12,432 nt of DNA from Candidatus Helarchaeota ASGARD archaeon Hel_GB_B (GTDB taxonomy: Archaea > Asgardarchaeota > Lokiarchaeia > Helarchaeales > HEL-GB-B): contig SUPR01000096.1 of the NCBI GenBank assembly GCA_005191425.1, forward strand, positions 1 to 12,432. Direction: 5' to 3'. The notes beneath the pieces were generated by a model. The model was not told the origin of the DNA and did not search any database. It worked only from the letters and a program-made list of their open reading frames with translations. The translations under genes were made by a program, and so were the position numbers. Every line of letters begins with the position of its first letter. The stretch's first letter is position 1. Shown one piece after another: positions 3,100 through 12,403 of this stretch.

Positions 3100-3822
3100 A
3101 TGCTTTTAGAAAATATGACCTGGAAAGAAATCGAAGATTATGTGAGAAAAAATAAAGTTATATTAATACCTACTGGTGTATATGAGGAGCATGGTTTTCA
3201 TCTTCCAGTTTCTACGGATAATGACATTGGTATGTATATATCAAAAAAAGTAGGAGATAATTTAGATTTAATTGTTGCGCCATTAATTCCATTTGGAATC
3301 TCCAGAAAAACAAGGGAATTCCCTGGTTCTATTATGCTACAATTTGAAACTTTTAAACATCTTATTGAAGATATTTTGATAAATTATTTAGAAAATGGTT
3401 TTAAAAAATTGATAATATTTTCTTTTCATGGCTCCAGCAATCATTTAATGGCTCTAAACGAAGCTGCATATACAATTAAAAGAAAATGGCGGAACGAGCC
3501 AGATGTTCATATATACATAATATCAAGTAAAGATATTAGTGATAACAGAATTTTTAAATTATTAAAATCAATTCCAATCCATTCAGGAGAATTAGAAACA
3601 TCTATTATGTTATATTTATCAGAAAATCTTGTAAAAATTGATAAAGTTATAAAAGAAGAACCAAAATTTCCTGATTATGAGCTATTATTAACAGGACGCC
3701 CTTGGATGAAAAGTGGAGTCATGGGAGACCCTGTAAAAGCTACAAAAGAAAAAGGTGAATCTATTATAAAGTTTTTTATTGAAAATTTAACCAATAAAAT
3801 TAGAAAAATTATTGAAAATTAA
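3100..3822 (+). CDS. Creatininase-family amidohydrolase (creatinine amidohydrolase / ArfB / MftE superfamily)
   Basis: Motifs ENMTW, IPTGVYEEHGFHLPVSTD, FHGSSNH, HSGELETS and SGVMGDP match the family pattern. The substrate cannot be determined from sequence. Confidence 0.9.
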   Translation: MLLENMTWKEIEDYVRKNKVILIPTGVYEEHGFHLPVSTDNDIGMYISKKVGDNLDLIVAPLIPFGISRKTREFPGSIMLQFETFKHLIEDILINYLENGFKKLIIFSFHGSSNHLMALNEAAYTIKRKWRNEPDVHIYIISSKDISDNRIFKLLKSIPIHSGELETSIMLYLSENLVKIDKVIKEEPKFPDYELLLTGRPWMKSGVMGDPVKATKEKGESIIKFFIENLTNKIRKIIEN

Positions 3823-3849: not shown

Positions 3850-4203
3850 TTATTCATATAATGTCCCAAGCCATCCTTCATCATTTCCTTTTTCATCAAG
3901 AATATTGAAATTAGTAACGACCAAGATTTCTTTTTTTTCTCCTTCTTCTTCAACAATTTTTTTTATTTTAATCATTCTTATATAATATATAGCATTACAA
4001 TTTCTACATTTTACTTTGTAATCAATTATTTCCTTTTTTGATTCGTCAGACTCTTCTATGTTAATTTTTTTTTCAAGAAATTCTAATACAAATTTATTTT
4101 CCATTGAGCACCTAATACAAGCCTTAATATTTATTGGTTGGAATCCCCTTCTTCCTAATGGAATGTAAATTGTGTCTGGTAATTCATCAGCTAAATTTGC
4201 CAT
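3850..4203 (-). CDS. Hypothetical protein with two CxxC motifs (putative Zn ribbon)
   Basis: 117 aa ORF with CIRC...CRNC and a GTGAT motif 4 nt upstream of its ATG. It fills the gap between convergent and divergent neighbours with no overlap. Confidence 0.8.
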   Translation of the reverse strand: MANLADELPDTIYIPLGRRGFQPINIKACIRCSMENKFVLEFLEKKINIEESDESKKEIIDYKVKCRNCNAIYYIRMIKIKKIVEEEGEKKEILVVTNFNILDEKGNDEGWLGTLYE

Positions 4204-4926: not shown

Positions 4927-6171
4927 ATGTTTAGGGCTACATATTCACCGAAGATAGAAGATTTGAAGAATAAACCAGTAGTTTTGCTATATTCAGGTGG
5001 GCTGGATACAAGTACGATGTTAGTTTGGTTGCAAGAAAATTATAAATGTGAGGTAATATCATGCACAGTTTCAATTGGTCAGAAAGGAAAGGATTTTAAG
5101 CAATTAGAGGAAAAAGCATATAGATTAGGCGTAAAAAAACACTATACAATAGATGCGCGTGAAGAATTTGTAGAAAATTATCTATTTCCAGCTATAAAAG
5201 CAAATGCTTTATATGAAGGTGCATACCCATTGCATTCGGCATTGTCGCGTCCATTATTAGCCAAATATGCGATAGAAATTGCAGAAAAAGAAAATGCAGT
5301 AGCAATAGCTCATGGATGTACAGGAAAAGGTAATGACCAAGTTAGAATAAATATTACAGCCTTTACATTAAATCCAAAAATAAAGATAATTCAACCAGTT
5401 GTTGAGTGGGGCTTTTTAAGAGACCAAGAAATCGAATATGCGCACAGCCATGGAATTCCAATTCCAGAAAAGTCAGTTTATTCAATTGATGAAAATATAT
5501 TTGGAAGGAGTATCGAATGTGGAGAATTAGAATTTCCAGATAAAGAGCCACCTGCCGATGCATTTGAGTGGACTACTGACCCAAGAGAAGCGCCAAATGA
5601 CCCAGAATATGTAGAACTAACATTTAAGAGAGGGATCCCAATTAAATTAAATGGGGAGTCGATGAATGGCTATGAATTGATCCAGAAATTAAATGAAATT
5701 GCTGGAAAACATGGAGTAGGTAGAATAGACCATTTGGAGGACCGAATTGTAGGGCTTAAATCAAGAGAGCTTTATGAAAACCCAGCAGCAGTTGTTTTAA
5801 TAAAAGCTCATAAAGATTTAGAAAAAGGAGTATGTACAAGTCAAGAAGTAGATTTTAAAAATATGGTAGACCAGCGATGGGCATACATGTGTTATGCAGG
5901 ATTATGGTTAAATCCATTAATGGATGATTTAAATGCATTTATAAATGAAGTAAATAAAAAAGTGAATGGGACAGTTAAATTGAAATTATTTAAAGGAAAC
6001 GCCGAAGTAGTAGGCAGAAAATCAAAATGGCTACTTTATGACTATAAACTTGCTACATATGAAGGAATTTCGACCTTCAATGAAAAAGCTTCATATGGTT
6101 TCATTGAGCTATGGGGATTACAAACAAAGATGAGCTATCAAATAAAAAAACAAAATGAAAATGAAGATTAA
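4927..6171 (+). CDS. argG: Argininosuccinate synthase
   Basis: Motifs LYSGGLDTS, ANALYEGAYPL.SALSRPL, AHGCTGKGNDQVR, YSIDENIFGRSIECG and GKHGVGRIDHLEDRIVGLKSRELYE. Confidence 0.97.
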   Translation: MFRATYSPKIEDLKNKPVVLLYSGGLDTSTMLVWLQENYKCEVISCTVSIGQKGKDFKQLEEKAYRLGVKKHYTIDAREEFVENYLFPAIKANALYEGAYPLHSALSRPLLAKYAIEIAEKENAVAIAHGCTGKGNDQVRINITAFTLNPKIKIIQPVVEWGFLRDQEIEYAHSHGIPIPEKSVYSIDENIFGRSIECGELEFPDKEPPADAFEWTTDPREAPNDPEYVELTFKRGIPIKLNGESMNGYELIQKLNEIAGKHGVGRIDHLEDRIVGLKSRELYENPAAVVLIKAHKDLEKGVCTSQEVDFKNMVDQRWAYMCYAGLWLNPLMDDLNAFINEVNKKVNGTVKLKLFKGNAEVVGRKSKWLLYDYKLATYEGISTFNEKASYGFIELWGLQTKMSYQIKKQNENED

Positions 6172-6366: not shown

Positions 6367-7887
6367 ATGATTAAAATGACTGAAAAGCCTTGGTCTGGTA
6401 GGTTTGATTCAGATATAAAAAAAGAAGTATTAGATTATTCTGTAGGAGACGATATTGATTTAGATAAAGAATTAATAATTCACGATATAATTGGAACTGA
6501 AGCTCATGATATAATGCTATATAAAGTTGGAATTTTGAAGGAACAGACCATTAAAAATATATTAACTGGGCTTGAGAGGATTAAAAAGTTAGTTTTAGAA
6601 AATAAGTTTATATTAGAGAAAAATTTTGAAGATGTACATATGAATATAGAAAAAGCAGTGATTAATTATATTGGAGAAGATGATGGAGGAAATATACATA
6701 TTGCAAGGTCTCGAAACGACCAAATACAGCTTGATTTACGTTTATTTATGCGAGATAATATTATAGAAATTTTGGAACAACTAATAAATTTAATAGAATC
6801 ATTAATAAATAAGGCGAAATCTAATTTAGATACAATTATGCCAGGGTACACACACTTTCAATTAGCTCAGCCAATTACATTTGCGCATTGGAGTATGTCA
6901 CATGTAGATGCCTTTATTCGAGATTTTGAAAGTATTAATACAGTCTATAAACAAATTAACCAATCACCTTTGGGTGCAGCTGCAATGGCAGGTGTAAGTT
7001 GGAAAATTGACCGAAAATTAACAGCAGATTTACTCGGGTTTGATAGTGTTCAGGAGAATACATTAGATTGTATTTCATGTAGAGGCGAATTTATTGCAAA
7101 ATTATTGAGTAGTTTTTCTATTTTAATGATACATCTTAGTAAAATATCCGAAGATTTTATCCTGTGGTCTACGAGGGAATTTAATATGGTTGAAATCAAC
7201 GATTCATTTGCGACTGGAAGTAGTATAATGCCACAGAAAAAAAATCCAGATATCTGTGAGTTAATCAGAGCTCGCACTACTGTGCTTAACTCATTATTAT
7301 TCCAAGTTTTAAATATAATTAAAGGACTTCCATCAGGATATCATAGAGACCATCAAGAAACTAAATATCCTTTAATTAAAAGTATTAAGATAGTAAAAGA
7401 ATCAATATCAATAATGACTGGATTAATTAATACAATAATATTAAAAAAAGATAGGATGAATGAATTAGTAAATAATAATTTTATAGCTGCTACAGAAGTT
7501 ATGGATTATTTAGTAAAACATGGAATTCCTCTTAGGACTGCCCATAATATAGTAGGAAAATTTATTAAAGGTCTAATAAAAAATTCAGTATATTCATTAA
7601 ATCAAGCTAAAGTTGAAATATTAAAAAATCTTGTCAAAAATGAATTACAGATAGATTTAAAAATAACTCAAAAAGAATTTGATGATTTAATAAATATTGA
7701 AAATATTATTAAAAATAGAAATTTAATTGGCGGTCCTGCTCCAGAAGAAGTATCAAGAATGATAAAAGATAGGACTGATAAAATTCAAATTTATAAGAAA
7801 ATAAATGAACAAATTAAAAATAAAAATAAGACAACAAAATTAAAACTAAATGAATTGGTTAAATCTATAATAAATGGAGGTAAATAA
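6367..7887 (+). CDS. argH: Argininosuccinate lyase
   Basis: Motifs PWSGRF, HIARSRNDQ, MPGYTHFQLAQP, SPLGAAAMAG and the fumarase-superfamily signature GSSIMPQKKNPD. The true start may be ATG 6376 (TGAT-N4-ATG spacing). Confidence 0.96.
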   Translation: MIKMTEKPWSGRFDSDIKKEVLDYSVGDDIDLDKELIIHDIIGTEAHDIMLYKVGILKEQTIKNILTGLERIKKLVLENKFILEKNFEDVHMNIEKAVINYIGEDDGGNIHIARSRNDQIQLDLRLFMRDNIIEILEQLINLIESLINKAKSNLDTIMPGYTHFQLAQPITFAHWSMSHVDAFIRDFESINTVYKQINQSPLGAAAMAGVSWKIDRKLTADLLGFDSVQENTLDCISCRGEFIAKLLSSFSILMIHLSKISEDFILWSTREFNMVEINDSFATGSSIMPQKKNPDICELIRARTTVLNSLLFQVLNIIKGLPSGYHRDHQETKYPLIKSIKIVKESISIMTGLINTIILKKDRMNELVNNNFIAATEVMDYLVKHGIPLRTAHNIVGKFIKGLIKNSVYSLNQAKVEILKNLVKNELQIDLKITQKEFDDLINIENIIKNRNLIGGPAPEEVSRMIKDRTDKIQIYKKINEQIKNKNKTTKLKLNELVKSIINGGK

Positions 7888-8067
7888 TTGACAAAAAAGG
7901 GTACATGTCCATCATGTTATTTTGAAATAGAAGTTAATGATGATGTAATATTAGGAGAAATATTAGAGTGTCCTGATTGTTCTTCGGAATTAGAAATCAT
8001 AGAAATTAAGAATGATGAAGTAGTTTTCCAAATTGCAGAAGAAGTCGAGGATGACTGGGGCGAATAA
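7888..8067 (+). CDS. lysW: LysW/ArgW amino-group carrier protein (59 aa)
   Basis: Not in the ORF track. TTG start directly after the argH stop, with GGAGGT at 7876-7881. Translation: MTKKGTCPSCYFEIEVNDDVILGEILECPDCSSELEIIEIKNDEVVFQIAEEVEDDWGE. It has two CPxC motifs, 18 of 59 residues acidic, and a C-terminal DDWGE (canonical EDWGE). Confidence 0.97.
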   Translation: MTKKGTCPSCYFEIEVNDDVILGEILECPDCSSELEIIEIKNDEVVFQIAEEVEDDWGE

Positions 8068-8090: not shown

Positions 8091-8978
8091 TTGCATTTTA
8101 CTTTAATTTGTAATAAAATTAGCTGGGAAGAAAAAGAGATCATAAAAGCTGCTCGTAAGAGGAATATAGAATACGACATAATTTTAAATCATGACTTAGT
8201 ACTTGACTTAGAAAAAGAGCATTTCGATACAGACATATTTCTACAGCGTTCATTGAGCTATTTTAGAGGATTATATATTAATGCAATTCTAGAAAACCAA
8301 GGATATAGGGTAATAAATTCGTTTCATTGCGCGCAAATTTGTGGAAATAAATTACTAACGACATTAGAATTAGTCAAAAATAAAATCCCAACACCAAAAG
8401 CCTATTGTGCATTTACAAAAAAGGGCGCTTTAGAAGCCTTAGAAAATTTAGGTTATCCTGCAGTAATTAAGCCAATAGTAGGTTCTTGGGGTAGATTAGT
8501 AGCACTTCTTAAGGACAGGGATTTTGCAGTTGCAGTTTTAGAAGATAGAGAAACATTAGGGCAACTGTATCATAAAATTTTTTACTTACAAAAATATATT
8601 TGGAAGCCAGCTAGGGATATTAGTGAATTTGTTTCCACTAGAGACGAGCCACCAAGAGATATTCGAGTTTTAACTATAGGTAATGAAGTAATAACTGCGA
8701 TGTATCGATATGAAATAAAGGATGATTGGAGGAGTACTGCAACATTAGGAGCTCGTAGTAAGCCATGTAAAGTTACACCCGAAATGGAGAAAATTGCCCT
8801 AAAGGCTGCAAAAATAGTAGACGGAGAAATTTTGGGCCTGGATTTAATGGAAACAGACAATGGTTATTTAATTCAAGAAATTAACCACACTTCAGGATTT
8901 AAAGCAGCCTCTTGGACGACAGGTACTGATATTGCAGGTAGGATTATTGAATATTTAATAAAAGAATGTAAAAAATGA
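8091..8978 (+). CDS. lysX: LysX/ArgX-type ATP-grasp ligase ([LysW]-glutamate or [LysW]-aminoadipate ligase)
   Basis: Motifs ISWEEKEII, CGNKLLT, VIKPIVGSWGRLV, RDIR, GLDLME and QEINHT. It is adjacent to lysW, with a TTG start and GTGAT upstream. Context with argGH favours an ArgX role, but specificity is not established. Confidence 0.93.
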   Translation: MHFTLICNKISWEEKEIIKAARKRNIEYDIILNHDLVLDLEKEHFDTDIFLQRSLSYFRGLYINAILENQGYRVINSFHCAQICGNKLLTTLELVKNKIPTPKAYCAFTKKGALEALENLGYPAVIKPIVGSWGRLVALLKDRDFAVAVLEDRETLGQLYHKIFYLQKYIWKPARDISEFVSTRDEPPRDIRVLTIGNEVITAMYRYEIKDDWRSTATLGARSKPCKVTPEMEKIALKAAKIVDGEILGLDLMETDNGYLIQEINHTSGFKAASWTTGTDIAGRIIEYLIKECKK

Positions 8979-8990
8979 AATGATGAAAAA

Positions 8991-9818
8991 ATGAGTATAG
9001 TTATCAAGTTAGGTGGTAAATTATTATCACAAGGAGAAATGTTCAATAATGTTATTATAGATATTGCAAATATAATTAAAAAGTCTAATAAAAAAATTGT
9101 TTTAGTCCATGGTGGTGGCCCGCAAATTAATCAAATGCTAGAAAAAATTGGTAAAAAACCCCGCATTGTGAAATCAGCTTCTGGAATGGAAAGTAGAATC
9201 ACAGATAGGGAAACTGTCGAAATTGCTCAAATGGTCATGGCAGGCAAATTAAATAAAGATCTGGTAGCAAAGTTTGAATCACTACAAATTAAAGCAGTAG
9301 GTTTATCTGGAATTGATGGCAGTTTAATTAAATCTAAGAGAAAAAATAATTTAAGAATAATAGACGAAAAGACAGGTAAAAAGATCGCTTTTCACGGCGA
9401 CTTTAGTGGGAATATTGAAGAGATTAATAGCTCGTTAATTGATTTATTATTGTCAAACAATTACCTTCCAATTATAGCTCCAATTGGGATCGGGCATGAA
9501 TTTGAACCATTAAATTTGGACGGCGATAGAACCGCAGGTCATATTGCATCTGCTTTAAAAGCGGAAACATTATTTCTTTTTACTGACGTGCCCGGGATAT
9601 TGATTAATGGTAAAATTATTGATAAATTAGGAAAAGAGGAAATTGAGTCTATTTTACCAAAAGTGGAAGGCGGGATGAGAAAAAAAGTTTATGCCGCAAA
9701 TGAAGCGCTTAAAATGGGGATTAAATCAGTATTTATAGGTTCCGGGCTAATAGAAAATCCAATTTCTTCAGTGTTAGATGGTCGGTCAGGCACAGAATTA
9801 TCTTGGAAATTTGTTTAA
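8991..9818 (+). CDS. lysZ: [LysW]-glutamate / [LysW]-aminoadipate kinase (LysZ/ArgB)
   Basis: Amino-acid kinase fold motifs VIKLGG, LVHGGG, SASGMESRITD, AVGLSGIDG, LNLDGDRTA, FTDVPG and GGMRKK. The LysZ-type GKKI..HGDFSG segment is present. Confidence 0.93.
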   Translation: MSIVIKLGGKLLSQGEMFNNVIIDIANIIKKSNKKIVLVHGGGPQINQMLEKIGKKPRIVKSASGMESRITDRETVEIAQMVMAGKLNKDLVAKFESLQIKAVGLSGIDGSLIKSKRKNNLRIIDEKTGKKIAFHGDFSGNIEEINSSLIDLLLSNNYLPIIAPIGIGHEFEPLNLDGDRTAGHIASALKAETLFLFTDVPGILINGKIIDKLGKEEIESILPKVEGGMRKKVYAANEALKMGIKSVFIGSGLIENPISSVLDGRSGTELSWKFV

Positions 9819-9835
9819 TAAAATAATAGGAACGA

Positions 9836-10951
9836 ATGATTTTGTTAGATGAAATTACATATATTAAATTATTAAAAGATGCATTAGAAATTTTTTCTCC
9901 TTCAGGAAAAGAAGAAGAGATGTCCCAATTTTTATTTAATTTGCTTCAAAAGCTTGGGTACTCAAATGTAAGGATAGACAGGATAGGTAATGTAATTGGT
10001 GAAATTGGTGAGAATAGACCAATTATTTTATTATCATCTCATTTAGATACAATTAATGACAACCTCCCTGTTTATGAAGATGATGAAAAATTATATGGAA
10101 GAGGTGCTGTAGATGCTAAAGGTCCATTGATGGCACTTTTACTTGGGGCATCAAAGTTTAGTAAAAAAAAATTGAATGGAAAAATAATTTTTGCAGGGAT
10201 TGTGCAAGAAGAAATTAGTACAAAAGGAATTGATGAATTCTTAAACAGTGGGGTTCAAGCAAACTATGCAATTTTTGCAGAACCAAATAATACAAACAAT
10301 ATTGTCGTTGCTTATAAAGGGAGGGCATTACTTCAAATAGTTATGAAATCAAAAAAGGGTTCAGGTCATCCAGCAAGTGCATGGTTATTTGATAATACTA
10401 TTGAACTTGCTCATTCATTTTATTTAAAAATTAAAGAGTTTTTTAATATCAATTACAGAGGTCGTACACCCTATTTTAGTGCAATACCTACAATTACTGA
10501 ATTCTACAGCTCCGAAGGGAAAAATGTCATTCCATCAAGAGCTAAATTTTATATTGACCTTAGATTTCCAATTGGTATTAATTTTAATGATTTAATTTCT
10601 GGTATCAATAAATTAAAAGAAGATTTTATTAAGTCAAATAATTGTATTATTGACATTGAAATTTTAAGCCTTGTATTACCATATTCAACGGACCCAAAAC
10701 AAATTTTTATCCAGAAATTATCAGAATCTATTGAAAAAGTTTTGAACGTCAAAAGTAAGTTAACAAGAAAAACTGGCACTACATTTATGAATGTTATAGG
10801 TAATAAATTAGGAATTCCAACAATAAGTATAGGGCCAGGAGACCCAAAGTTAGAACACACTAAAGAAGAATTCATTTATAAAAAAGATTTTTTAAATGAA
10901 ATTAAGATAATAGAGGATTTTATAGAAAATTTCTTAGGATTGCAAAATTGA
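9836..10951 (+). CDS. lysK: [LysW]-ornithine / [LysW]-lysine hydrolase (LysK/ArgE, M20 family)
   Basis: Motifs SPSGKE, HLDT, YGRGAVDAKGP, QEE, EP, RKTGT.MN and GPGDPKLEHT, with the M20 metal ligands present. It is the last gene of the lysW cluster. Confidence 0.9.
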   Translation: MILLDEITYIKLLKDALEIFSPSGKEEEMSQFLFNLLQKLGYSNVRIDRIGNVIGEIGENRPIILLSSHLDTINDNLPVYEDDEKLYGRGAVDAKGPLMALLLGASKFSKKKLNGKIIFAGIVQEEISTKGIDEFLNSGVQANYAIFAEPNNTNNIVVAYKGRALLQIVMKSKKGSGHPASAWLFDNTIELAHSFYLKIKEFFNINYRGRTPYFSAIPTITEFYSSEGKNVIPSRAKFYIDLRFPIGINFNDLISGINKLKEDFIKSNNCIIDIEILSLVLPYSTDPKQIFIQKLSESIEKVLNVKSKLTRKTGTTFMNVIGNKLGIPTISIGPGDPKLEHTKEEFIYKKDFLNEIKIIEDFIENFLGLQN

Positions 10952-11953
10952 AACTAGTAAACCTTTTTGTAAATGTAATCTATTTTCTGCTTGATCATAA
11001 ATAATTGAGTGGGCCCCATCACAAACAGAATCTGTTGCTATTACATTCCTTCTAATGGGCATACAATGCATAAAAAATGAATTTTTATTGGTCAAGTCCA
11101 TTAATTGGTCATTACATATCCAATTTTCCCTATATGGGATTCTAAGTTTCTTTTCTTTTTGAGGGTTGCCATACTCTTTTAATGAGCCCCAAGATTTTAC
11201 ATAAACAATATCTGCGCCGGCATATGCATCTTCTAAAGTATTTGTAATTTCAAATGAACTCCCATTTTTTGAAGCATTTTTTTTTGCAATATTAATTATT
11301 TTATCGTCTAGTTCAAAACCTGGTGGATGGACTAGTGTGACGTCCAGACCAAACCTTGTTGTCGCTAGTAAGGTAGAGTTAGGGACACTGACAGGTAAAG
11401 GTCTTGGATGATATGCCCAAGATATTACAAACTTTTTATTTTTAAGGTTATTCACTTTTTCTTTAATAGTCATAATATCAGATAGCGCTTGACATGGATG
11501 ATATAAGTCATCTTCAAAATTTATTATTGGTATTTCACTAAACTTTTCAAATTCCCTTATAATTCTATTAGCTTCACCATATTTCCATTTAACTACGTTA
11601 GGAAATATTCTAATTCCAATCGCATCGGCATACCGTGATAAAACTTTGGCAGTGTCCTTAATGCTTTCACTTTTTCTTCCAACCCAACTTTTATCTGCAT
11701 CAATATAAATTGCATGACCACCAAGCTGTGTCATTCCAACCTCAAATGAATTCCTGGTCCTTGTTGATGGGCTAAAAAATAACATAATAAGCGTATAACC
11801 TTCCAACTTTTTATGTATATTATATCTTCCCTTCTTAAATGTCTTTTTTAATTCAAATGCCTTATTTAAAACATACTCTAACTCATCTTTTGACCATTCT
11901 TGAGTTGTAATCAAACTTTTATTTTTTAAAAAGACCATTGACCTCACAATCAT
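10934..11953 (-). CDS. argF': N-acyl-ornithine carbamoyltransferase-like (ArgF'/AOTCase family), not a canonical OTCase
   Basis: Has the transcarbamylase motifs STRT and HPCQ plus AOTCase-type features RIFP..V.W, SWAYHPRPLPVSVPNS, YAGADIVYVKSWG, HCMPIRRN and AENRLH. It lacks the OTCase GDGxNN and DxWxSMG motifs. The likely start is ATG 11938, with GTGAGGT upstream. Confidence 0.88.
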   Translation of the reverse strand: MIVRSMVFLKNKSLITTQEWSKDELEYVLNKAFELKKTFKKGRYNIHKKLEGYTLIMLFFSPSTRTRNSFEVGMTQLGGHAIYIDADKSWVGRKSESIKDTAKVLSRYADAIGIRIFPNVVKWKYGEANRIIREFEKFSEIPIINFEDDLYHPCQALSDIMTIKEKVNNLKNKKFVISWAYHPRPLPVSVPNSTLLATTRFGLDVTLVHPPGFELDDKIINIAKKNASKNGSSFEITNTLEDAYAGADIVYVKSWGSLKEYGNPQKEKKLRIPYRENWICNDQLMDLTNKNSFFMHCMPIRRNVIATDSVCDGAHSIIYDQAENRLHLQKGLLVSILQS

Positions 11954-11977: not shown

Positions 11978-12403
11978 TTACCATAATGCATCTTTTGTGC
12001 GTTGTTCAGGAGTATCTTCAAATATTTCTTTTATCATATCACCAAAATTACTAAAAATATTTGTATCACCATTCCAAGTATCAATAATATCTTGAAATTC
12101 TTTCTTAAACATATCTTCAACAAATTTTAAATTACTAATTATTAACTTGTTTTTAATTCCTTTTTTTGACCGCGATATAAACAGAATACCCTTGTAGCCT
12201 TGAAAGATCGTCAATTTTGAATCACCCATTATAATTGTTTTTAATTTCTTTTCACCTAATTGCTGAATAAAAGAATTAAGTGCACTAAAAAAGCCACCAA
12301 ATAACACTGGATCTATTTTATCTCCTTTAGTTAGGTTAAATAATGTAATTCCTGATGGATGTACAATCCAAATCTCTTCTATCATCCTCATTTTTTCAGC
12401 CAC
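11978..12403 (-). CDS. Stand-alone longin-like domain protein (Asgard-type eukaryotic signature protein)
   Basis: The pattern IWIVHPSGITLF...DPVLFGGFFSALNSF...I.MGDSKL...LFISRS...F.KEF...WNGDTNIFSNF resembles Asgard longin / sigma-adaptin-like domains. This is pattern recognition only. The start could be GTG 12403, ATG 12391 or ATG 12385. Confidence 0.7.
   Translation of the reverse strand: MAEKMRMIEEIWIVHPSGITLFNLTKGDKIDPVLFGGFFSALNSFIQQLGEKKLKTIIMGDSKLTIFQGYKGILFISRSKKGIKNKLIISNLKFVEDMFKKEFQDIIDTWNGDTNIFSNFGDMIKEIFEDTPEQRTKDALW

Follow-up and report, generated by a model that had tools for sequence, protein, structure and literature searches.

A knotted-type transcarbamylase beside a LysW gene cluster in a Helarchaeota genome: a candidate LysW-ornithine carbamoyltransferase

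The 12,432-nucleotide contig SUPR01000096.1 of Candidatus Helarchaeota ASGARD archaeon Hel_GB_B, which over its whole length is referred to here as the window, carries a gene cluster for the carrier protein LysW and, tail-to-tail with the lysK gene of that cluster, a gene for a transcarbamylase of 339 residues that we call P0001. By its sequence P0001 is a knotted-type transcarbamylase of an Asgard-specific lineage with a short 80's loop, within the family that comprises the N-acetylornithine carbamoyltransferases (AOTCases) and the N-succinylornithine carbamoyltransferases (SOTCases), enzymes that take ornithine only when it is N-blocked. We propose, and give the proposal an even chance of being right, that it is a LysW-ornithine carbamoyltransferase, in which case LysK would subsequently release citrulline and not ornithine. 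We infer this substrate, and hence the order of the pathway, from the fold family, motifs, clade, synteny and genome content that we observed. In the described LysW pathways LysK frees ornithine before carbamoylation, and we know of no transcarbamylase that acts on a LysW-bound substrate; neither a LysW-ornithine carbamoyltransferase nor LysW-citrulline is described in the literature that we searched. The features of P0001 used in the argument are listed below in window coordinates, all on the minus strand, with Xc denoting the AOTCase of Xanthomonas campestris.

10934..11953, minus strand: transcarbamylase P0001, 339 aa (from translation; the database entry begins at Met6)
11756..11767, minus strand: STRT carbamoyl-phosphate motif, residues 63-66
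11654..11701, minus strand: 80's loop DADKSWVGRKSESIKD, residues 85-100 (exact translation)
11576..11593, minus strand: VKWKYG, residues 121-126, within the extended 120's loop
11375..11413, minus strand: proline-rich loop YHPRPLPVSVPNS, residues 181-193, holding H182, R184 and P187 (equivalent to Xc Asn185)
11186..11197, minus strand: KSWG, in place of the DxxxSMG of ornithine carbamoyltransferase; its K253 is equivalent to Xc Lys252 (second-substrate binding)
11129..11164, minus strand: basic helix PQKEKKLRIPYR, residues 264-275, the predicted docking surface for the globular domain of LysW
11039..11068, minus strand: HCMPIRRNVI, residues 296-305, the HxLP motif with Met for Leu; R301 is equivalent to R278 of Bacteroides SOTCase and I305 to Xc Lys302

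Family assignment, acyl-pocket signature and 80's loop

P0001 passes the NCBIfam equivalog model for AOTCase (NF003384, 348.5 bits with a cut-off of 288), a model that does not separate the Asgard short-loop lineage from AOTCase, and it falls below the cut-off of the model for ornithine carbamoyltransferase (OTCase; TIGR00658, 259 bits with a cut-off of 280.85). All database names say AOTCase. The best relative of solved structure by sequence is the Xc enzyme (278 bits, about 40% identity), and the AlphaFold2 model of P0001 (pLDDT 94.7) reaches a TM score of 0.88-0.90 to 3KZM/3KZK, with 0.89 to the knotted 3KZK, and of 0.85 to the OTCase of Pyrococcus furiosus. The motifs of the superfamily are in place (STRT at residues 63-66, HPCQ at 152-155, HCMP at 296-299 and the beta4 Arg, R115), and YVKSWGS is found at the position of the OTCase DxxxSMG. 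According to the review by Shi, Allewell and Tuchman (PMC4581275), a proline-rich loop and an extended 120's loop mark the knotted transcarbamylases. Both marks are present in P0001, in which the extended 120's loop, FPNVVKWKYGEANRII, aligns with the Xc loop; the OTCase of its own genome has a 10-column gap there.

The same review separates the two enzymes of the family at three positions, which are Glu92, Asn185 and Lys302 in AOTCase and A, S, P, V or Q, then P, then V, I or E in SOTCase. P0001 has Ser95, Pro187 and Ile305 at these positions, which is the signature of SOTCase and not that of AOTCase, and for this reason we regard its acyl pocket as succinyl-type. The 28 Asgard short-loop sequences tallied all have the Ser and the Pro, and their residue at position 305 is V, I or E. 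The residues that anchor the succinyl group in Bacteroides SOTCase are His176, Arg178 and Arg278 (PMC4581275); their equivalents in P0001, deduced from motif positions and not from an alignment with the Bacteroides enzyme, are H182, R184 and R301, with H182 and R301 invariant.

A signature of this kind would also suit an enzyme for a small-molecule N-acyl-ornithine, whether N-succinyl-ornithine, N-acetyl-ornithine or an ornithine bearing another acyl group from an unrecognized acyltransferase. In favor of such a substrate are the Ser/Pro/Ile pattern, which equals the one published for SOTCase, the match of H182, R184 and R301 to the succinyl anchors, and the AOTCase assignment by both the equivalog model and the database names. 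We nevertheless hold it to be rather improbable, given that the 80's loop, which shapes the acyl pocket in both characterized enzymes, is 10-11 residues shorter in P0001, that the neighbors of the gene belong to the LysW pathway, and that the genome content described in the next section offers no recognized source of such a substrate.

Bacteroides SOTCase has the knotted fold family and the three-position pattern in common with P0001, in which its E142, K236, H176, R178 and R278 have equivalents; its gene likewise lies beside arginine genes, and its substrate has an arm (-CO-CH2-CH2-COO-) similar to the gamma-glutamyl link in LysW. P0001 differs from it by having STRT and not SLRT, by an 80's loop that is 10-11 residues shorter, by a score of only 143 bits to the solved chain, by a place outside the bacterial clade, by LysW-pathway neighbors with no evident succinyl route, and by the variability of its Arg178 equivalent. 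The Xc AOTCase is the best match in both sequence and fold, with equivalents in P0001 for W77, E144, K252, R298 and R322 and with a proline-rich loop, an extended 120's loop and an RRN segment that P0001 also has. In P0001, however, Ser, Pro and Ile stand in place of Glu92, Asn185 and Lys302 (the last of which we take to be a carboxylated lysine), STRT in place of SMRT, the loop is shorter by 10, and the genome showed no acetyl-glutamate route. Finally, ArgF of P. furiosus (1A1S, 212 bits, TM 0.85) resembles P0001 in its STRT, in a similar 80's loop length and in the carbamoyl-phosphate site, whereas P0001 is without DxxxSMG, has the proline-rich loop and also the extended 120's loop, scores under the TIGR00658 cut-off and comes from a genome that encodes a true OTCase elsewhere (contig C164).

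A preliminary description of the window had viewed P0001 as a hybrid, with a short OTCase-like 80's loop and STRT on an AOTCase-like ornithine domain, in which about a dozen loop residues, including the specificity site, had been lost. Translation of 11654-11701 (minus strand) and its surroundings gives the loop, the STRT and the VKWKYG that it reported. Our HMMER alignment of P0001 with the Xc enzyme (3KZC and mutants) contains the Xc loop in the form given there, shows the changes from SMRT to STRT and from VDWSKD to VKWKYG, and pairs the retained Trp (W90) with Xc W77. The shortening is real, amounting to 10 residues in the alignment and to 11 when the span from His80 to Thr101 is counted, which has 22 residues in P0001 and 32-34 in 32 bacterial relatives. 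The specificity site, however, is not among the missing residues: the gap sits between the Trp and the G-x-x segment, ahead of this site, so that Xc Glu92 aligns with Ser95 and Xc Glu93 with Glu96. The 28 Asgard short-loop sequences have both residues without exception, and an alignment of 74 sequences shows no variation at Glu96 and at least 90% conservation of Ser95. The bacterial AOTCase and SOTCase relatives have mostly SLRT, with SVRT or SMRT in some, at the position of the STRT.

The loop DADKSWVGRKSESIKD, which holds W90, R93 and the specificity residue S95, had also been described as basic. K88, R93, K94 and K99 are indeed present and the loop is less acidic than in bacteria, but its net charge is still -1 in the Asgard clade, compared with -4 in bacterial AOTCase and SOTCase. 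Position 93 is the only one to carry a basic residue specific to the LysW-linked subclade; in 14/14 LysW-linked members this residue is K or R, whereas the unlinked sister subclade has Tyr and bacteria have D, G or T there. The residues K268, R271 and R275 of the basic helix do not vary within the Asgard clade; their conservation in bacteria is lower. A further peculiarity was seen in the HxLP motif (11059-11068 of the window, minus strand), where HCMP, with Met for the Ramachandran-outlier Leu, occurs in both copies of the enzyme in the Hel_GB_B genome and HCLP in the remaining 12 of the LysW-linked members tallied.

Knotted transcarbamylases have radiated in Asgard genomes, and among them we separated five groups. 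The group of the window has STRT and the loop K-x-W-[IV]-G-[KR]-x-SESIKDT, a Lokiarchaeial sister group has the loop SIKDSWIGYxSESIKDT, and three further groups have different loops. In a tree of 98 rows (LG+G4) the Asgard short-loop clade (SH-aLRT 99) is sister (92) to a monophyletic clade of long-loop bacterial enzymes (99), which includes a Xanthomonadales AOTCase cluster with the Glu/Asn/Lys signature. A C20 mixture tree made with the loop columns removed supports the union of Asgard short-loop and bacterial sequences (97) and the bacterial clade (99) and leaves Asgard monophyly unresolved. A search of a representative database, used only for outgroup sampling, gave no match above 48% identity; another database holds many relatives of P0001 at 55-75% identity.

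Loops of 20-24 residues, in many cases together with STRT, are found in OTCases and in most of the other knotted clades. Because they have these features in common, the short loop and STRT look ancestral, and the long loop is most simply explained as a bacterial insertion; on the same ground we rejected the idea that P0001 arose from AOTCase by a loop deletion. In evolutionary terms the 80's loop of AOTCase and SOTCase would then be an insertion made in bacteria on a short-loop ancestor. The name hybrid therefore fits the appearance of P0001 and not its history. The preliminary description had offered an intermediate lineage between OTCase and AOTCase as a second possibility, and this holds loosely, in that the Asgard short-loop group and the bacterial AOTCase/SOTCase clade come together within the knotted transcarbamylases. 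The phylogeny that it recommended places P0001 outside the characterized bacterial clade, which is monophyletic (99) and has the long 80's loop.

Genomic neighborhood and the arginine route

The genes of the LysW cluster in the window are as follows.

4927-6171, plus strand: argG, profile match (citrulline-consuming step)
6367-7887, plus strand: argH, profile match (citrulline-consuming step)
7888..8067, plus strand: LysW carrier protein, 59 aa, TTG start, C-terminus DDWGE (NF041070, 62 bits)
8091..8978, plus strand: lysX, LysX/ArgX-type ligase (TIGR02144, 290.7 bits)
8991..9818, plus strand: lysZ, LysZ kinase (NF010659, 257 bits)
9836..10951, plus strand: lysK, LysK hydrolase (TIGR01902, 213 bits)

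The lysK gene and the gene for P0001 are convergent and overlap by 18 bases. At 7/7 examined loci of the subclade of the window, which come from the Hel_GB_B genome and from six genomes of two GTDB families (f19 and f9), the transcarbamylase gene lies tail-to-tail after lysK in the arrangement (argG-argH)-lysW-lysX-(lysY)-lysZ-lysK, and a further Helarchaeal member is located 3 kb from the same LysW cluster. None of the other four Asgard transcarbamylase groups stands beside LysW genes. The sister group has a GFO/IDH/MocA oxidoreductase and an HDAC-family deacetylase as neighbors, and two further groups neighbor amidohydrolases and a pyridoxal phosphate (PLP) enzyme in a setting like that of ygeW. 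Pairs of divergent genes for knotted transcarbamylases, one with SLRT and a long loop and the other with STRT and no Trp, were noticed in other Asgard families (L049-L058, e.g., G011:C23 229593-231669); these too adjoin amidohydrolases and a PLP enzyme and resemble ygeW-type catabolic clusters.

The LysW cluster probably serves arginine, with lysine made via diaminopimelate, because LysA is present in the same genome. The lysY and lysJ genes are missing from the window because they are located apart from the lysW cluster, together on contig C157 (15111-16753), where lysY is cut by the contig end. No route to N-acetyl-ornithine was recognized in searches for ArgJ and ArgA, with the Hel_GB_B genome being 93.7% complete: ArgJ was found in 0/11 genomes, and no ArgA-type synthase scored above its cut-off in 5 genomes, in searches that did not extend to short synthases of the GNAT type or to the proposed succinylglutamate synthase (bioRxiv 10.1101/2024.10.14.618325). 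The glutamate-kinase-type genes found in the genomes tested are LysZ-like only, and for the aminotransferase step the searches yielded a single gene, the lysJ that accompanies lysY on C157. These results speak against a small-molecule acyl-ornithine, and the only blocked ornithine predicted in the genomes tested is LysW-gamma-Glu-ornithine.

In four genomes of one Lokiarchaeial genus (G019, G030, G142 and G103), of which three are 98-100% complete, LysW, lysX-lysZ-lysK and argG are present and a canonical OTCase is absent. The sole transcarbamylase of ornithine type in these genomes is a short-loop enzyme belonging to the sister group, which speaks for a role in arginine synthesis; its gene adjoins a GFO/IDH/MocA oxidoreductase, a small dsDNA_bind-like open reading frame (ORF) and an HDAC-family deacetylase. 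This deacetylase could be a deacylase for acyl-citrulline.

Proposed reaction, LysW docking and alternatives

In the reaction that we propose, P0001 would act as a trimer and bind carbamoyl phosphate through STRT, R115, HPCQ, HCMP and R325 together with W90 of the neighboring subunit. The ornithine moiety of the second substrate would be held by E147 and K253, and P0001 would carbamoylate the delta-amine of an ornithine blocked at its alpha-amine. LysW would most likely provide the block, through the gamma-carboxyl of its C-terminal Glu; the product would be LysW-citrulline, from which LysK would then free citrulline for ArgG and ArgH. The succinyl-type pocket (Ser95, Pro187 and Ile, Val or Glu at 305) may suit the -CO-CH2-CH2-...COO- arm that is common to the gamma-glutamyl and succinyl groups, while the short and less acidic 80's loop and the basic helix (K268, R271 and R275) may let the acidic carrier dock.

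To examine the docking we co-folded two copies of P0001 with LysW, using our own alignments and three controls. The score was 0.62, compared with 0.25 for the best of the three controls, and passes the mark that 58/80 solved complexes and 2/110 mismatched pairs reached in the calibration, counts that serve as a rough guide given that our own alignments were used and that the job is unlike the calibration set. Contact agreement among the runs was at least 89%, with a pLDDT of at least 78 for the partner. In the model, Gly58-Glu59 of LysW are placed near E147 and C297-M298-P299, at the second-substrate site (expected error 7-8 A), and the zinc-ribbon knuckles of LysW rest on P183-R184, residues 264-265, K268 and R275 (expected error 1-2 A). 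Among solved structures we found no complex of a transcarbamylase with LysW, the LysW complexes being only those with LysZ, LysY, ArgX and LysX, so that the pass is not the memory of a like complex. Binding of LysW by P0001, with the C-terminal Glu in the active site, is thus predicted at the level of model confidence, which is not a measurement. The preliminary description had suggested that an opened pocket could admit the acidic tail of LysW; the synteny with lysK, the lack of a recognizable acetyl route, the succinyl-type signature and the co-fold agree with the admission of the tail, with the specificity residue retained as a Ser.

The gene for P0001 shares a cluster with genes for LysW-dependent enzymes, and, like the LysX/ArgX, LysZ, LysY, LysJ and LysK of Thermus, Sulfolobus and Thermococcus (3VPB, 3WWL/3WWN, 5EIN/5EIO and 5K2M), P0001 would use a substrate attached to LysW at its C-terminal Glu and would dock the acidic carrier on a basic surface. 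If the proposal is correct, the LysW carrier system, which is known so far to end at ornithine or lysine, gains a step, and P0001 would be the first transcarbamylase known to use a protein-bound substrate. The route would be an archaeal, protein-carrier counterpart of the acetylcitrulline route of Xanthomonas and the succinylcitrulline route of Bacteroides, so that the blocked-ornithine logic of the bacterial ArgF' would exist in a protein-carrier form in the archaeal lineage that is closest to eukaryotes. The proposal would also correct a systematic mis-annotation, that of more than 100 Asgard proteins that are named N-acetylornithine carbamoyltransferase.

Several findings weigh against a LysW-bound substrate. 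The gene is convergent with lysK, and therefore the two are not co-transcribed. In f19 and f9 the transcarbamylase gene also adjoins larC-larB-larE, which are unrelated genes for nickel-pincer cofactor synthesis, and the loci of these two families are not independent samples because of this extended synteny. A sister subclade that is not adjacent to LysW genes has the same loop and signature, and the residue at position 184, the equivalent of Arg178, varies within the subclade of the window (R in 9 members, N in 3, F in 1 and K in 1). Finally, a canonical OTCase that scores above the curated cut-off is present in the Hel_GB_B genome (C164, 414.7 bits), and one was also found in 5/5 other LysW-linked genomes tested. 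The textbook route, in which LysK frees ornithine and OTCase makes citrulline, is consequently complete, and P0001 fills no gap.

The first of these findings can be read as signs of a non-arginine or catabolic carbamoylation, with the proximity to LysW being inherited gene order without functional meaning. Besides the convergent orientation, which precludes co-transcription with lysK, and the unrelated lar genes that are likewise common to f19 and f9, such a role would agree with the repeated occurrence of a GFO/IDH/MocA oxidoreductase, which is found next to the sister subclade, next to the Helarchaeal copy and on contig C48, and with the ygeW-like catabolic settings of other Asgard knotted transcarbamylase clades. 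We consider it quite unlikely, since P0001 agrees with AOTCase and SOTCase in E147 and K253 of the ornithine site and in the RRN segment, the linkage to the LysW cluster has been kept across at least three flanking contexts, and the one genus without another citrulline-making enzyme retains argG.

The canonical OTCase bears on another explanation, that P0001 is an isozyme for free L-ornithine, a knotted-fold equivalent of ArgF acting after the release by LysK. In the five f19/f9 genomes the canonical OTCase has a conserved prefoldin-ftsY-OTCase context apart from the other arginine genes; a catabolic role for this OTCase was considered and dropped, with both arcA and arcC searched for and neither found. 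The STRT and the OTCase-length loop of P0001 would fit a free-ornithine isozyme, as would the release of ornithine ahead of ArgF in LysW pathways as they are generally known, that of Natrinema among them, and in the OTCase-less Lokiarchaeial genus a short-loop enzyme encoded away from lysX-lysZ-lysK could replace ArgF. P0001 is, however, without DxxxSMG, stays under the cut-off of the OTCase model and carries every loop of the knotted family, and there is no conserved Asgard-specific acidic residue in the acyl pocket for a free alpha-ammonium group, position 305 being only sometimes Glu. In addition, a true OTCase coexists with the short-loop enzyme in at least 7/18 sampled genomes that hold the clade, with 7 more having a second transcarbamylase match that was not inspected. 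On balance we find a free-ornithine isozyme unlikely and prefer LysW-ornithine as the substrate of P0001.

Other features of the window and its assembly

The window is contig C180 of a 3.54-Mb assembly of 182 contigs with an estimated completeness of 93.7% and contamination of 4.9%. The closest relatives of its proteins carry the names Lokiarchaeota, Helarchaeota, Freyarchaeota, Jordarchaeum, Hodarchaeota and Thorarchaeota. Its remaining genes are listed here.

453-1493: DUF2961 protein
1796-2992: thiolase
3100-3822: creatininase-family amidohydrolase
3850-4203: small Zn-ribbon protein (weak Churchill-like match)
11978-12403, minus strand: 141-aa protein, upstream of the gene for P0001

No tie of the first four genes, upstream of the LysW cluster, to that cluster was seen. 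The 141-aa protein has only weak Pfam matches of the longin and SRP-alpha-N-like kind (E 0.02-0.09). A counterpart stands beside the transcarbamylase copy on contig C48 and not beside the f19/f9 orthologues, and since it is kept only in the two copies of the Hel_GB_B genome we rejected it as a part of the system; a comparison with the small ORF beside the sister subclade revealed no likeness. The C-terminal part of a membrane protein that adjoins the canonical OTCase on C164 resembles the 141-aa protein by eye.

The end of a second cluster, made up of the 3' end of lysX, lysZ, lysK, a convergent transcarbamylase gene and a small protein of 137 aa, was observed on contig C48 (1-3552). This region is collinear with 8850-11930 of the window at 71.6% nucleotide identity, and its transcarbamylase is 75% identical to P0001. 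C48 is a 7-kb contig with a GC content of 25.4%, compared with 29.9% for the window, and the cluster end on it may be either a true paralogous cluster or that of a co-binned relative.

A homologue is labelled as that of a bacterium, Candidatus Deferrimicrobium (NCBI record DATKTP010000241.1). The contig of this record has SecE, Spt5-NGN and JAB genes, and its gene order matches that of a Helarchaeota contig, so that the bin assignment is probably wrong.

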